A stretch of 5,584 nucleotides of DNA, from the NCBI RefSeq assembly GCF_000009705.1, contig NC_003241.1, forward strand, positions 1 through 5,584. Reading direction: 5' to 3'. Below, piece after piece: positions 1 to 5,584 of the stretch. The DNA comes from Nostoc sp. PCC 7120 = FACHB-418. Its GTDB lineage: Bacteria > Cyanobacteriota > Cyanobacteriia > Cyanobacteriales > Nostocaceae. The notes below the pieces were generated by a model. That model did not search any database and was not told where the DNA came from. It saw only the letters and a program-made list of their open reading frames with translations. How positions within the stretch are numbered: position 1 is the stretch's first letter; each line of letters begins with the position of its first letter. The translations under genes and the position numbers were made by a program.

Positions 1-1449
1 TACGTAGCGCGTCAGAAGGCTTATCACCCAGTAGCTAATTACTTGTCATCCCTTGAAAACTATGGCATAGAACATAGCATAGAATATGGCACAGTTGATA
101 GCATAAAATATGCCATGTCTGCAATACTACAATCTGTTGCAGACATACACGATGACCTAGCACAAACTATTTTAATTAAATGGCTAGTATCAGGTGTAGC
201 GAGAATATTTGAACCTGGGTGTAAGGTTGACATGATGCCTATCTTCTACGGCAGACAGGGAATAGGTAAATCATCATTCTTGCGGGAATTATGCCCTCAA
301 TCGGATTGGTTTAGTGACGACCATTCTGGCACGGGTGATAAGGATGCAATGATGTTGCTCAATCAATTTTGGATTCTAGAGATAGCAGAGTTTGAGAAAA
401 TCTATTCCAAGAGTGATGCAGAAACATTAAAAGCAATTGTCACAAAACTCGCTGATACTTACCGCGCCCCATACGACAAAGATTTGGAGACACACTTCAG
501 AAGATGTATTCTCGCCGCTACAGCTAACAGTCAAGACTTCTTGCGTGACTCATCCGGCGATCGCCGTTACCCAGTTATTGCCCTTCACCAAAAAGTAAAC
601 ATACCCTTGCTGATTGAGAAACGGGATGAGCTTTGGTTTTATGCGATGCAATTGTATAGACTTGGCTACCAATGGCATACGACACCAGAAGAAGACGCAA
701 AGGTAAGCATCAATAACGCTGCTTATCGTGGTTACGACATATTCGGGGAAGCGGTAGCCGATGCGGTCAAGTTTCCTGGTTCACCTCACGGGCTGATGGA
801 GAAAACCCGTATCGATTATGTATGGGAGAAAATCAACGCTCACAAGTCACCGTTGCCAGACTTAACCCAAAAGGATAGCCGCGCTATTGCTAACGCTCTA
901 AAACAACTTGGCTACGAACAGAAAAACGTGTGGACTGACGGTAGTAGCAAGAAGTTCTGGGTACTTACCTCACCCATTACCTCATTACCTGAGTTTTCAG
1001 ACTCAGGGCAGGGTGAGGTAAGGCATACACAGCAAGAGTTACAGCCATTCCTTACCTCATTACCTCAAATAAAACTTTTGAAAAAAAATACTAAGGTAGC
1101 AGAGAGCATCGTCGATGATAATCCCTACGCTCACCTTGATGATGAAAAAGAAAGTTTAAAGTCAGGTAATGAGGTAATGGAAGCCTCAAACGTAGACACG
1201 GCAAGCCTTACCTCACCATTACCTGACCTTGTAGACTCAGGTAATGATGCAGGAAATGAGGTAAAAATCGGCGATCGCGTAACCCTGATGGTAGATCACA
1301 GTTTCGCGCTGGCAGGCACAGCATTAGAAGTTGTGGGCATCAATGACAGATACATCAGATGCTTAAGATGTGACCGCAAGCAAAATCAGCCAGCCAGCCT
1401 GAGGGAAATTATCGTACTAGCTGACCAAGTGCAGTTGACCAACTCATAA
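1..1449 (+). CDS. VirE-family (PF05272-like) P-loop NTPase/helicase part of a primase-helicase replicase. The 5' end is open at the window edge, and the TTG at 43 in the ORF track is not the real start.
   Basis: Frame 1 is open from base 1 (YVARQKAYHPVANYLSSL...). It carries the HPV-x-YL motif typical of VirE/D5-like helicases and a Walker A (GRQGIGKS, 250-273). Further family-like blocks are WILEIAEFE, YRAPYDK, ATANSQDFLRDSSGDRRYPV and RDELWFYA. An S/P/T/D/E-rich linker and a small C-terminal domain follow, with stop TAA at 1447-1449. Confidence 0.9.
   Translation, partial: YVARQKAYHPVANYLSSLENYGIEHSIEYGTVDSIKYAMSAILQSVADIHDDLAQTILIKWLVSGVARIFEPGCKVDMMPIFYGRQGIGKSSFLRELCPQSDWFSDDHSGTGDKDAMMLLNQFWILEIAEFEKIYSKSDAETLKAIVTKLADTYRAPYDKDLETHFRRCILAATANSQDFLRDSSGDRRYPVIALHQKVNIPLLIEKRDELWFYAMQLYRLGYQWHTTPEEDAKVSINNAAYRGYDIFGEAVADAVKFPGSPHGLMEKTRIDYVWEKINAHKSPLPDLTQKDSRAIANALKQLGYEQKNVWTDGSSKKFWVLTSPITSLPEFSDSGQGEVRHTQQELQPFLTSLPQIKLLKKNTKVAESIVDDNPYAHLDDEKESLKSGNEVMEASNVDTASLTSPLPDLVDSGNDAGNEVKIGDRVTLMVDHSFALAGTALEVVGINDRYIRCLRCDRKQNQPASLREIIVLADQVQLTNS
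61..120. repeat. Five degenerate 12-bp tandem repeats (iteron-like) inside the replicase CDS.
   Basis: The units are tatggcatagaa / catagcatagaa / tatggcacagtt / gatagcataaaa / tatgccatgtct. Units 1 and 2 match at 10 of 12 positions, as do units 2 and 4. They encode the 4-aa periodic peptide YGIE-HSIE-YGTV-DSIK-YAMS. Confidence 0.7.
115..146. repeat. Perfect 10-bp stem, 12-nt loop hairpin immediately after the 12-mer array.
   Basis: ATGTCTGCAA (115-124) and TTGCAGACAT (137-146). Confidence 0.7.
965..1264. repeat. Dense field of TTACCTCA / TGAGGTAA direct and inverted repeats inside the replicase linker-coding region.
   Basis: TTACCT occurs at 965, 977, 985, 1052, 1060, 1208 and 1219. AGGTAA occurs at 1016, 1164, 1172, 1239 and 1259. 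There is an 18-bp perfect inverted repeat: CCATTACCTCATTACCTG (974-991) with CAGGTAATGAGGTAATGG (1163-1180). There is also a palindrome CATTACCTGA-N10-TCAGGTAATG (1217-1246). Confidence 0.85.
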
Positions 1450-2839: not shown

Positions 2840-2964
2840 CATCATCTAACACGGTTGTAGCTACCTCAATTTTTATGATTGGGGTGGCTATTTTTTTACT
2901 GGCATTATCCCTCAATGATGCCCCCAAGATGCGATTAGAAATAAGGATTGAAATCAATGGATGA
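2836..2964 (+). CDS. Small predicted single-pass membrane protein (42 aa), not in the supplied ORF track.
   Basis: Hand translation gives MTSSNTVVATSIFMIGVAIFLLALSLNDAPKMRLEIRIEING. It has a 20-residue hydrophobic helix followed by a charged tail. There is an ATGA start/stop overlap with the upstream gene, and an 8-nt overlap with the ATG (2957) of the ATPase gene. That pattern suggests translational coupling. Confidence 0.4.
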   Translation: MTSSNTVVATSIFMIGVAIFLLALSLNDAPKMRLEIRIEING

Positions 2965-4129
2965 TAAGGAATTACTCACGCTAGATATGCCCCTCCAGCG
3001 TATGAAACGCAGTGCTTGGGTAGCGATGCCCTTACCCGACAGTAAGGCAGCAATACGCTTTATTGGGTGGGCATCAGGTAGGCTGGCTTTTATGGCATTG
3101 TCTACCAGTTTAAGCATTATCAAAAATGCTGCTAAAGCTGTTATTTGGATATCGGAAAAAATTGAAGATGGGTTAAAACTTCTCACCCATTACTATGATG
3201 CACTCCCTTACATGGGAATGCCTCAAGACACACTTACGCTTGAGGCAATACCAGCTAACCAGGGGGCTAGCAATCTTCAGACTCCATCTGTAGATATCCT
3301 AGCAGGTATCGCGGGGAAACACTTACTAATAATTGGCGATACGGGAAGCGGTAAAAGTACGATCGCTCAGTACATTGCTGCCAGGAATTCATCACAGATA
3401 AAAGTTTATGATGCTGATGCCGCGCCGGATGATTGGCAAGGCTTGAAAGTAGTCGGCAAGGGTGGCGATTTTGGCGAGATTAACGCATCAATGAACGCTG
3501 ATATTGATGAATTAGAAAATAGAATCAAACTGCGATCGCAATCTGGCGATAATGCGCTCACTGGCAAGGAACTTTGCATCATTGCTGAAGAATTCCCCAG
3601 TTTAAAGGATGAGTGTGAAATTGCACCGGAATGGCTGGGTAAGCTGGCTAGGAGGGGTAGAAAGCCAAAGATATTTGTCATCGCTTTGTCACAGTCGGAC
3701 AGTGTAAAAGCGCTTGGCATTGAGGGTGACGGCGCTATCCGGCAGAACTTCAAATACTTACGATTGGGTAAGTTCGCGGTACAACACGCCAAAAAACTGG
3801 GTAATGATGCCATGGTGAACTGGCTTCAATCTGGCAAGTATCGAGCGATGCTGGACGATGAGCCAGCGCAAATGCCATCAATAGATAGTACACTTTTAGT
3901 ACACACGAGGTTGCTTGATAGTCGCGCGATCGCCGGCGAAAATCCGCCGGAACCACCGCCGGAAATGGATCTAACCAATTTACCTCATTCGCTAAAACCA
4001 GCTATTTTGGCGCTAAAACAGGAGGGCTGGAGTGATAGCAAGCTAATCAAGGAGGTGCTTGGCTACTCCGGCGGGAATTATCAAAAGGGCAAATTGATTC
4101 TGGATGAGTTACTAGGCAGGGGACAATAG
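2957..4129 (+). CDS. FtsK/SpoIIIE/TraB-like P-loop DNA translocase ATPase with a C-terminal helix-turn-helix-like domain.
   Basis: Walker A is LLIIGDTGSGKST (3335-3361) and Walker B-like is LCIIAEEFPSL (3575-3592). The blocks RRGRKPKIFVIALSQSDS and GAIRQNFKYLRL are collinear with the FtsK motifs (RAaGIHlilATQRPS and IKaN.ptRiaf). A proline-rich linker (NPPEPPPE) precedes a roughly 50-aa helical tail. I prefer ATG 2957, which has AAGGA 9 nt upstream, over the tracked TTG at 2948. Confidence 0.85.
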   Translation: MDDKELLTLDMPLQRMKRSAWVAMPLPDSKAAIRFIGWASGRLAFMALSTSLSIIKNAAKAVIWISEKIEDGLKLLTHYYDALPYMGMPQDTLTLEAIPANQGASNLQTPSVDILAGIAGKHLLIIGDTGSGKSTIAQYIAARNSSQIKVYDADAAPDDWQGLKVVGKGGDFGEINASMNADIDELENRIKLRSQSGDNALTGKELCIIAEEFPSLKDECEIAPEWLGKLARRGRKPKIFVIALSQSDSVKALGIEGDGAIRQNFKYLRLGKFAVQHAKKLGNDAMVNWLQSGKYRAMLDDEPAQMPSIDSTLLVHTRLLDSRAIAGENPPEPPPEMDLTNLPHSLKPAILALKQEGWSDSKLIKEVLGYSGGNYQKGKLILDELLGRGQ

Positions 4130-4507: not shown

Positions 4508-4667
4508 GAGTGCCTACGAGTGCCTATCCATGCCATAGAAACATGAGTAGCGGAGGCTTTTGACCACTGAATTAATTATGCCATATAGGAACTGAATAGT
4601 ACAGTCCATGCCATAACTTTTCAGCAAAAGTCTTAACTTATGCAATAAGAGCAAGGGTAGGCACTCG
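4508..4667. promoter_or_regulatory. Repeat-rich intergenic control region upstream of the replicase gene. Candidate origin, operator or leader.
   Basis: Tandem GAGTGCCTA copies lie at 4508-4516 and 4518-4526, with an inverted copy TAGGCACTC(G) at 4658-4667. There are three ATGCCATA boxes (4530, 4578, 4608), two ACTGAAT copies (4566, 4591) and a hairpin ACTTTT-CAGC-AAAAGT (4616-4631). A possible -35 TTGACC lies at 4560-4565, but the -10 is weak. Confidence 0.5.
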
Positions 4668-4690: not shown

Positions 4691-5584
4691 ATGGTAAACA
4701 CATTACAAAAAAACCAATCCAAAGAACAGACCATTGAATTTTTGTCCCAACAGCGTGGTATACCTGTTGACTGGCTTGAGGCTCACTGCAAGCGCGATCG
4801 CGACGGATGGCTGATTACTGGAGCTAATTATCAGCAACAGAAACGCCTAGATAAGCCTAGAACGACCAAGGACGGCAAGCAGGTTAAATATGTATCGCAC
4901 ACCAAGGATAAGCAGAAGTACGACATATTTATCCCAGTTGAGCCTACTTTTGGGCTACCGATAACGGATGATTACGACCGCGACGCGACGCTGGTGATCA
5001 CTGAAGGGGCATTCAAAGCTATAAAAGGTTGTAGCGAGGGCGTGTTGACTGTTAGCGTGCCTGGGGTAAATCAACTGTTCAAGCCCAAAGAAAGCGGCGG
5101 CGACTTGGTGAACGGACTGCACGCGCTCACCATTAGATATAAGAAAATAATCATCGCGTTTGACGCTGATGCCAGTTTTAAACCTCAAGTATGGGATGCC
5201 ATAAAGAAAGGGGCTATGGCATTAATTGAGCGCGATTGTGATGTAAAAATAGCTGTGTGGCAACATTCGGAAGAGACTAAAGGAATGGATGATTATATCA
5301 ACAAAGAAGGCATAGAAGCTTTCAAGTTAGTGTTAGAAAATGCGCTAGCTTTGGATGCTTGGGAACATCAATATCCGCGTCCAGAGGACAAGGCATCCAA
5401 AACAAAGCGAACAAAAGCACGGGAAGCAATAGAAAAATATTACGGCGATAGATTGCAGTGGAATGAATTAAAACAAAGAATAGAATTAGATGGCACTCAA
5501 TACAAAGCGGGTCATGCTTATATTGATATAGATAAGGATATCTGCATTGAGTTACCTAAAGAACTCGCTATGGACTTGATGGTA
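4691..5584 (+). CDS. N-terminal part of the primase-helicase replicase: a Toprim-like (DUF3854-type) domain followed by the start of the VirE N-terminal region. The 3' end is open at the window edge.
   Basis: ATG at 4691 follows AGGAG (4680-4684) with a 6-nt spacer. I translated it by hand and found 298 sense codons with no stop up to base 5584. Toprim-type acidic motifs are present: LVITEGAFKA (Glu codon 5003-5005) and IIIAFDADA (DxD, 5162-5170). The tail RLQWNELKQRIELDG matches the N-terminal region usually found upstream of VirE NTPase domains. It is missing from the supplied ORF track only because it has no stop in the window. Confidence 0.85.
   Translation, partial: MVNTLQKNQSKEQTIEFLSQQRGIPVDWLEAHCKRDRDGWLITGANYQQQKRLDKPRTTKDGKQVKYVSHTKDKQKYDIFIPVEPTFGLPITDDYDRDATLVITEGAFKAIKGCSEGVLTVSVPGVNQLFKPKESGGDLVNGLHALTIRYKKIIIAFDADASFKPQVWDAIKKGAMALIERDCDVKIAVWQHSEETKGMDDYINKEGIEAFKLVLENALALDAWEHQYPRPEDKASKTKRTKAREAIEKYYGDRLQWNELKQRIELDGTQYKAGHAYIDIDKDICIELPKELAMDLMV

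Follow-up and report, generated by a model that had tools for sequence, protein, structure and literature searches.

A probable SaPI-type iteron origin within the rep open reading frame of a 5,584-bp plasmid of Nostoc sp. PCC 7120

Introduction

The Rep proteins of the staphylococcal pathogenicity islands (SaPIs) are self-loading helicases, of which the C-terminal winged helix recognizes short iterons (Qiao et al. 2022 PMC9371898; Bebel et al. 2020 PMC7581432). The SaPI origin of replication (ori; Ubeda et al. 2007, as cited in these two reports) is described as comprising 6-12 iterons of 5-6 nt immediately downstream of rep, with an AT-rich region near the center and at least two iterons per side in opposite orientation (PMC9371898, PMC7581432). 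Cch2 of SCCmec follows a similar logic of iteron recognition (PMC7581432). Here, we analyze a field of short repeated words at positions 965-1264 of a 5,584-bp stretch of DNA (henceforth "the window"), which lies inside the open reading frame (ORF) for a Rep protein homologous to those of SaPIs. We take the window to be pCC7120zeta (zeta), the smallest plasmid of Nostoc/Anabaena PCC 7120, and propose that the field is quite probably the Rep-bound vegetative replication origin of this plasmid, an iteron origin of the SaPI type.

An origin inside an initiator gene has been found in the RepA_N plasmids of the pSK41 type from Gram-positive bacteria, of which the origin (the Rep boxes) occupies the center of the rep gene and the encoded segment is an interdomain linker (PMC5703833). 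The zeta field is likewise located within the initiator ORF, in a linker-coding segment. However, RepA_N is unrelated to zeta Rep, possesses no helicase or primase domain and bears its DNA-binding domain at the N-terminus. Furthermore, pSK41 has four boxes instead of the 12-site dyad of zeta and recruits the host DnaG. In-frame deletion of the linker, with the protein supplied in trans, was done for pSK41 (PMC5703833).

CyRepA1 and CyRepA2 (pSYSA, pCC5.2) share with zeta Rep the host phylum and an N-terminal DUF3854 domain. The helicase module of CyRepA is of the DEXDc type (PMC10079941), whereas that of zeta Rep is VapE, and the two are set apart by the published domain definition. As the Pfam scan of zeta Rep detected no DEAD/DEXDc-type family and only DUF3854 is shared, an assignment of zeta Rep to CyRepA was rejected. 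The CyRepA papers map no origin, which is either left unmapped or proposed to lie upstream of rep with RNA priming, and the minimal replicons always include the whole rep ORF (PMC10079941, PMC9978351). Because the whole ORF is always included, an intragenic origin is possible in these plasmids as well.

The initial annotation of the window compared the field with the origin of phage lambda. The location in the linker of an initiator is indeed common to both, but the likeness is one of analogy only; judging from the homology of the Rep proteins, the zeta field is most closely matched, among known systems, by the SaPI ori with its self-loading helicase of the VapE family. The lambda ori comprises iterons and an A+T-rich region inside gene O, in the part coding for an interdomain linker, and transcription through the origin belongs to its activation, which suggests an analogous coupling for zeta. 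Different from zeta Rep, the unrelated O protein has no intrinsic helicase or primase and needs P and the host DnaB, and the lambda iterons are four 19-bp inverted repeats. The alpha protein of phage P4 unites a primase, an SF3-type helicase and a C-terminal winged-helix origin binder in one polypeptide, and the octamer iterons of P4 (ori/crr) occur in both orientations, as the zeta words do. Nevertheless, the helicase of alpha belongs to a different Pfam family, zeta Rep showing only a weak DUF5906 match. P4 has two separated cis sites, neither of which, to our knowledge, has been described inside the alpha gene. Iteron recognition by the winged helix of a self-loading helicase (SaPI) and the placement of an origin in an initiator linker (pSK41, lambda) are thus already known. 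Unreported in the searchable literature is their combination, a putative SaPI-type origin inside the ORF of a primase-helicase-KOW fusion that is retained across a cyanobacterial clade.

Results and discussion

Domain organization of zeta Rep

The rep frame starts at position 4691, runs past the end of the window and continues in frame through position 1, yielding a product of 780 aa. As the ORF crosses the junction 5584/1 in frame, the replicon is circular. The circle was cut inside rep, and ORF lists therefore give a 468-aa fragment from an internal TTG instead of the true start at 4691. A protein search returned one match of 100% identity, a VapE-domain protein of Nostoc sp. PCC 7120, and the next best relatives of Rep share 34-35% identity. 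Almost certainly, the 5,584 bp of the window constitute pCC7120zeta in full. The rep coding sequence (CDS), apart from the field, is divided as follows.

4691..5584, plus strand: rep CDS part 1, residues 1-298; DUF3854 Toprim/primase-like domain (residues 98-209) and helical connector
1..738, plus strand: VapE-like P-loop helicase/ATPase core, residues 299-544; Pfam VapE-like_dom, E=5.5e-62
739..963, plus strand: winged-helix C-terminal domain, residues ~545-620; helices 569-576 and 588-600, beta-hairpin 603-620
1264..1449, plus strand: KOW-like small C-terminal domain, residues ~721-780, plus the stop codon (1447-1449)

Pfam detected DUF3854 (PF12965) at residues 98-209 with an E-value of 4.5e-21 and the VapE-like domain at residues 338-538. 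The family profile matched SaPI1 Rep1, in the structure of its complex with DNA (PDB 7PDS, chain A), with an E-value of 1e-98 over chain residues 12-448 of 477. This alignment runs from ahead of the ATPase to near the C-terminus and should reach the C-terminal domain of SaPI1 Rep1. Likewise, 7pds was the top Foldseek match for Rep with a TM-score of 0.65, followed by other primase-helicases of superfamily 3 (SF3). Based on these matches, we regard Rep as a fusion of a DUF3854 primase-like domain, a VapE-family helicase and a winged helix.

In the AlphaFold2 model (45 homologs), the predicted local distance difference test (pLDDT) score stayed at 90 or above to residue ~628, and the confident part includes a helix and a beta-hairpin ending at residue 620. 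The pLDDT was below 50 for residues 629-762, and the tail domain was modeled at low confidence. The conserved part of the winged helix ends with W618, which does not vary among the 15 closest homologs, and the field starts two codons past this residue. The field codes for residues 620-720, an S/P/T/E-rich linker without a confident predicted fold that leads from the winged helix to the KOW-like tail, in agreement with the initial annotation, which had placed the repeats in a probably disordered linker. The rep frame contains no internal stop over 965-1449, as against 17 stops in each of the other two frames, indicating that the C-terminal extension is maintained as coding sequence. A profile of 12 tails matched the KOW domains of Spt5/NusG with an E-value of 2.7e-6, and the last ~60 residues of Rep appear to form a small KOW-like domain. 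This tail is conserved in relatives and always directly follows the field. The winged-helix domain just upstream of the field is the likely reader of the iterons.

Structure of the iteron field

The field and its parts are listed below.

965..1264, no strand: iteron field, proposed oriV; 12 copies of TTACCT(C/G)A in one imperfect 300-bp dyad, encoding Rep residues 620-720
965..1021, no strand: outer left block; forward iterons 965, 977 and 985, palindrome CCTGAG-N8-CTCAGG, reverse iteron 1014
1052..1067, plus strand: inner left iteron pair (1052, 1060), oriented toward the center
1060..1099, no strand: A+T-rich stretch, candidate DNA-unwinding element (unwinding presumed)
1162..1177, minus strand: inner right iteron pair (1162, 1170), oriented toward the center; with 974-991 it forms a perfect 18-bp inverted repeat
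1208..1264, no strand: outer right block; forward iterons 1208 and 1219, reverse iterons 1237 and 1257, and a 10-N10-10 palindrome

The hexamer TTACCT/AGGTAA occurs 12 times in 965-1264 (seven forward and five reverse) and four times in the other 5.3 kb (264, 701, 3980, 5552), the same counts as those given in the initial annotation. The 8-mer TTACCTCA accounts for five forward and three reverse copies in the field, also as annotated, with an additional copy at 3980. When C or G is allowed at position 7, the field holds exactly 12 full 8-bp sites. The forward sites start, as the hexamers do, at 965, 977, 985, 1052, 1060, 1208 and 1219; the reverse sites start at 1014, 1162, 1170, 1237 and 1257, the corresponding hexamers being at 1016, 1164, 1172, 1239 and 1259. 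The field is the densest strand-collapsed hexamer cluster of the window. Across 300 simulated Markov-1 sequences, the highest copy number that any hexamer reached in a cluster averaged 4.6 and never surpassed nine. The clustering of the field words exceeds chance.

The larger symmetries that had been annotated were all recovered. The inverted repeat 974-991/1163-1180 is perfect over 18 bp and extends to 23 nt at 96% identity, and the palindromes are found at 988-1007 (CCTGAG-N8-CTCAGG) and at 1217-1246 (10-N10-10, arms 1217-1226 and 1237-1246). The two related units of ~57 bp are identical at 41 of 58 aligned positions, with two 9-bp indels. These elements are parts of a single dyad centered at 1114.5, around which 90 of 150 pairs are complementary, compared with 37.6 +/- 5.5 at other centers (9.6 standard deviations). 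The left half and the reverse-complemented right half share 92 ungapped identities over 155 positions. The opposed inner iteron pairs are separated by a spacer of 94 bp. The segment 1065-1094 is 87% A+T and is the top 30-bp window of the rep CDS (mean 56%, standard deviation 9%); a further A+T-rich patch, of about 70-73%, is located at 1130-1169. No DnaA box was found in or near the field.

Several features of the zeta field resemble the SaPI ori. The VapE-family Rep proteins are homologous, the 12 iterons fall within the SaPI range of 6-12, an A+T-rich stretch lies between two halves with at least two opposed iterons per side, the field starts directly after the winged-helix coding sequence, and no separate loader gene is apparent on zeta. 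On the other hand, the zeta field is inside the ORF and is read through into the KOW-like domain, whereas the SaPI ori lies downstream of the rep stop; the words are of 8 bp instead of 5-6 nt; and four blocks, together forming one 300-bp dyad, make up the field. The zeta primase-like module is a Toprim-like DUF3854 domain fused to the helicase, and zeta is an autonomous cyanobacterial plasmid, the SaPI being a phage satellite.

As had been noted, the same word is read in different frames and on the opposite strand, which is seen directly in the sequence: the forward iterons encode LTS/ITS and LPE/LPQ/LPD in two frames, and the reverse iterons encode GEV, NEV and SGN.

The cyanobacterial palindrome HIP1 (GCGATCGC) is present in six copies in the window, one of which, at 1271-1278, lies 7 bp past the last iteron at the start of the sequence coding for the KOW-like tail.

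Repeat fields accompany Rep across the family

We surveyed 80 genomic loci encoding Rep relatives, 73 of which had a 3'-complete VapE ORF. For each locus, the densest strand-collapsed 7-mer cluster in any 300-bp window was located without regard to genes, and the 3' zone was taken to begin where the VapE domain ends and to extend 500 bp beyond the stop. The top cluster fell in the 3' zone in 35 of the 73 loci, against 8.4 expected (P=3.6e-15); 15 of the 35 were inside the ORF and 20 just downstream. Among the 3'-zone clusters with at least six copies, 27 of 31 had at least two copies per strand. A mirrored 5' zone of equal size held three top clusters, in comparison to 29 at the 3' end, and strong two-strand clusters numbered zero and 21, respectively. 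The words vary by lineage (CTGTTAC, GGTTACA, GGACAACC, GTGGTGA, TGATCCA, GTGGACA and others).

The position of the field follows the architecture of Rep. In the VapE-only relatives, the field typically begins 2-50 bp past the stop, and in the cyanobacterial DUF3854-VapE group it is part of the ORF, placed after the winged helix and before the tail domain. The W618 region, where the zeta field begins, corresponds to the end point of the ORF in the VapE-only relatives. In each of the 17 fields mapped, the most AT-rich 30-bp window was at or above the 93rd percentile of its own locus. The four-block layout with an AT-rich center recurs in five other loci (L002, L045, L047, L056 and L058 in our numbering), the hosts of which range from Fischerella to Polyangiaceae, and L001 displays a simpler layout of two blocks with an AT-rich center. 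Three of four complete small plasmids agree with the rule on field position: the field comes right after the VapE stop in Microcystis p2-NIES88 and Gluconobacter pGO128 and is inside the 3' part of the CDS in the C. aponinum plasmid. Thus, the iteron-type origin that the initial annotation had placed first among the candidate roles gains support from both the homology to SaPI Rep and the conserved position of the field.

The initial annotation had also considered a centromere-like site and a transfer locus acting in cis. The reader of such a partition or transfer site would be the ribbon-helix-helix (RHH) protein or the P-loop ATPase, the latter through a C-terminal DNA-binding domain as in the TraB/clt system of Streptomyces. 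Zeta encodes both proteins, the words are repeated and of 8 bp, and one extra copy lies in the ATPase gene. However, homologs of the ATPase were found in only three of the 80 Rep loci and that of the RHH protein in one, whereas fields lie beside Rep in most. The words change with the Rep lineage, and ATGCCATA, with seven copies in the window, is a better candidate for a second reader. Different from TraB, the zeta ATPase gave generic P-loop matches only in Pfam, NCBIfam and PDB, with no FtsK/TraB family match, leaving the label "FtsK-like" unsupported. Across the family, the presence of a field goes with Rep and not with the remaining genes of zeta. Given the rarity of the two homologs and the generic matches, a partition or transfer site read by these proteins is disfavored, and we consider it very unlikely.

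Three groups of loci are of note beside this pattern. The closest relative of the zeta module was found in Tolypothrix tenuis PCC 7101 (L001 3332-7361, AP018248.1), where an ATPase 55% identical to that of zeta is encoded directly upstream of a 35%-identical Rep with an in-ORF field of six CTGTTAC copies. The record is titled nearly complete chromosome, and the locus could represent either a zeta-like element that has integrated or a plasmid that was merged with the chromosome in the assembly. In a metagenome-assembled genome of Gloeomargaritaceae (L019 6918-7136), an in-frame stop separates the field-encoding Rep from a 72-aa segment matching the profile of the KOW-like tail (E=7e-6). Such a stop between field and tail was seen in L019 only and could reflect a split gene, stop-codon read-through, a pseudogene or an assembly error. 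In the Reps of the Microcoleus group (L003, L030, L032, L033, L035, L037 and L043), an unrelated helical tail (IALIWW.EYYPEQ...QMYGW) replaces the KOW-like tail after the field. The existence of two unrelated tail types implies that the module downstream of the origin is exchangeable. An origin of the extension by fusion with a free-standing tail gene was considered and rejected, as a separate KOW-like ORF past the origin was absent from all relatives in which the origin is downstream.

DNA-pattern scans of metagenomes yielded no match for the inner-pair arrangement and 120 matches for the 18-mer, most of them single chance ones. The only two-strand clusters among the latter (L171 and L186) were rejected as armadillo-repeat-like, probably eukaryotic contigs with no Rep homology.

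Selection acts on the DNA word

A megablast search of the whole window against PLSDB returned no match, and there are thus no close plasmid relatives for a direct synonymous/non-synonymous test on zeta. As the nearest relative of zeta Rep is only 34-35% identical, the comparison of homologs was moved to a sister lineage represented by three distinct sequences of the Leptolyngbya group (L011/L013, L014 and L016), which share the Rep/field architecture of zeta and use the common word GGACAACC. All 72 iteron columns were invariant, including 21 of 21 third codon positions, as opposed to 35% of the spacer columns (Fisher P=8e-23) and 28% of the spacer third positions. In the adjacent winged-helix domain, 34% of the third positions were invariant (Fisher P=1e-8). 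The sister-lineage word sits in different codon phases and on both strands, and the copy number, order and spacing of the iterons are conserved too. In this lineage, selection clearly acts on the DNA and not on the peptide. The comparison that the initial annotation had suggested therefore came out as expected for a constraint on DNA, the word being held and the spacers drifting.

These results bear on the idea that selection works on the protein, as a repetitive flexible linker, or on the mRNA, as a hairpin regulating translation of the C-terminal domain, with the DNA symmetry being incidental. The zeta segment is indeed S/P/T/E-rich without a confident fold, and the field strand folds far better than shuffled sequences (z = -8.8). 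The strong single-strand fold, however, follows from the dyad arrangement of the binding sites. Since a single word appears in two reading frames and in both orientations, and many relatives have the equivalent field outside the ORF, selection on the peptide is excluded; together with the invariant third positions in the sister lineage, we give the protein or mRNA reading hardly any credence.

Origin or control array

Some observations weigh against the field being the origin. Regarding the comparative evidence, no field is present in L012 or in roughly half of the VapE-only loci, of which many are chromosomal, the field of a Phormidium plasmid is about 1.1 kb downstream, and zeta has no relative closer than 34-35% identity with which to assess its own words. 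The iteron/spacer contrast in the sister lineage is somewhat inflated by an alignment anchored on identical words. Two plasmid-like contigs of Microcoleus (L003 3493-3788 and L004 227-525) bear a second field of 11 GTCTACA copies on both strands, which is separate from the in-linker field (ACCACCT in L004) and overlaps a small ORF in L003. Two different cis-site arrays thus coexist on one small replicon, and not every such cluster need be an origin. On zeta itself, GC and AT skew give no signal on the 5.6-kb circle, and an A+T-rich intergenic inverted repeat at about 2283-2327 offers an alternative site of strand opening.

The field might instead be a Rep-binding array for control only, acting in copy-number handcuffing, in incompatibility or in autoregulation through a block of rep transcription, with strand opening and initiation elsewhere, for example in the intergenic segment around 2283-2327. 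At that site, the A+T content reaches 87% in 30-bp windows, the dyad score (61/150) ranks second to that of the field, and two near-DnaA-box words are present; extra control iterons are common on iteron plasmids. For pSYSA, a related DUF3854 plasmid, priming has been proposed upstream of rep and not inside it (PMC10079941, PMC9978351). Nevertheless, an A+T maximum is found within the field itself, flanked by opposed iteron pairs in the layout of the SaPI ori; the relatives keep this layout beside Rep whatever the neighboring genes are; and the 3.1-kb Microcystis plasmid has no other repeat cluster of comparable density. We therefore regard a purely regulatory array as improbable and retain the SaPI-type origin as the preferred interpretation of the field.

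Proposed mode of initiation and its implications

By homology to SaPI Rep, zeta Rep would bind the words via its winged-helix domain, and two Rep hexamers would form head-to-head at the inner pairs of opposite orientation and open the A+T-rich spacer, no separate loader being needed. The first primers may then be made by the N-terminal primase-like domain, after which the host polymerase would copy the circle in theta mode. The outer blocks probably serve in cooperative binding or in copy-number control via origin pairing. The field is presumed to be required in cis for replication. For the origin of SaPIbov1, every part is reported to be necessary (Ubeda et al. 2012).

The ORF reads through the proposed origin into the KOW-like tail; hence, the iterons double as linker codons, and every rep transcript crosses the origin. 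Speculatively, transcription across the origin helps to open it. A more elaborate proposal, which we regard as rather unlikely, is that the read-through of rep over its own origin is a selected design in the clade of cyanobacterial primase-helicase plasmids and constitutes a one-gene feedback circuit. Transcription of rep through the iterons and the A+T-rich spacer would help to open the origin in a lambda-like manner, and iteron-bound Rep would block elongation, so that the occupancy of the origin would throttle full-length Rep or switch the output to a tail-less isoform. The conserved KOW-like tail would link the initiator to the transcription or translation machinery, and a single 300-bp segment would be origin, operator and linker codons at once.

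If the SaPI-type origin holds, the field is the first concrete, testable origin for any plasmid of the model cyanobacterium Nostoc/Anabaena PCC 7120 and, by extension, for the widespread cyanobacterial primase-helicase plasmids with unmapped origins. In the construction of shuttle vectors, simple subcloning could not part the origin from rep, and a truncated rep would lose the origin. The iteron word could predict incompatibility groups. An iteron field starting at the end of the winged helix appears as a recurring signature of VapE replicons from cyanobacteria to Myxococcota and Alphaproteobacteria, which may be used for computational origin annotation. The zeta linker would also be a clear case of DNA-binding sites dictating the amino-acid sequence of a protein.

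Other elements of the plasmid

One further copy of the field word lies outside rep.

3980..3989, plus strand: lone extra word copy TTACCTCATT inside the P-loop ATPase gene; membership in the same system uncertain

This copy, pointed out in the initial annotation, is present but may be due to chance, the probability of a chance occurrence being 0.13 for the 8-mer and 0.016 for the 10-mer, the latter chosen post hoc. The ATPase gene (2948-4129) codes for 393 aa, with an end segment of ~60 aa after a proline-rich linker. Among the loci examined, its homologs were found in filamentous cyanobacteria only (Tolypothrix, Westiellopsis and Leptolyngbya).

A second over-represented word, ATGCCATA/TATGGCAT, has seven exact copies (61, 3091, 4530, 4578, 4608, 5196 and 5215), with about 0.17 expected. 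The direct ATGCCATA copies at 4530, 4578 and 4608 are intergenic, just upstream of the rep start at 4691. We regard this word as a candidate operator, partition or other cis site, with a reader different from that of the TTACCTCA field.

The intergenic region 2279-2345, to which the A+T-rich windows and the second-best dyad score of the window belong, contains the inverted repeat TTCCACAT ... ATGTGGAA. The near-DnaA-box words are TATTCCACA at 2283 on the plus strand and TGTTCCACA at 2319 on the minus strand. The region could be a promoter/terminator, an operator or an alternative unwinding site. Finally, proteogenomics has detected an unannotated small gene, supported by three peptides, between asr9501 and asr9503 on pCC7120zeta (PMC8557916).

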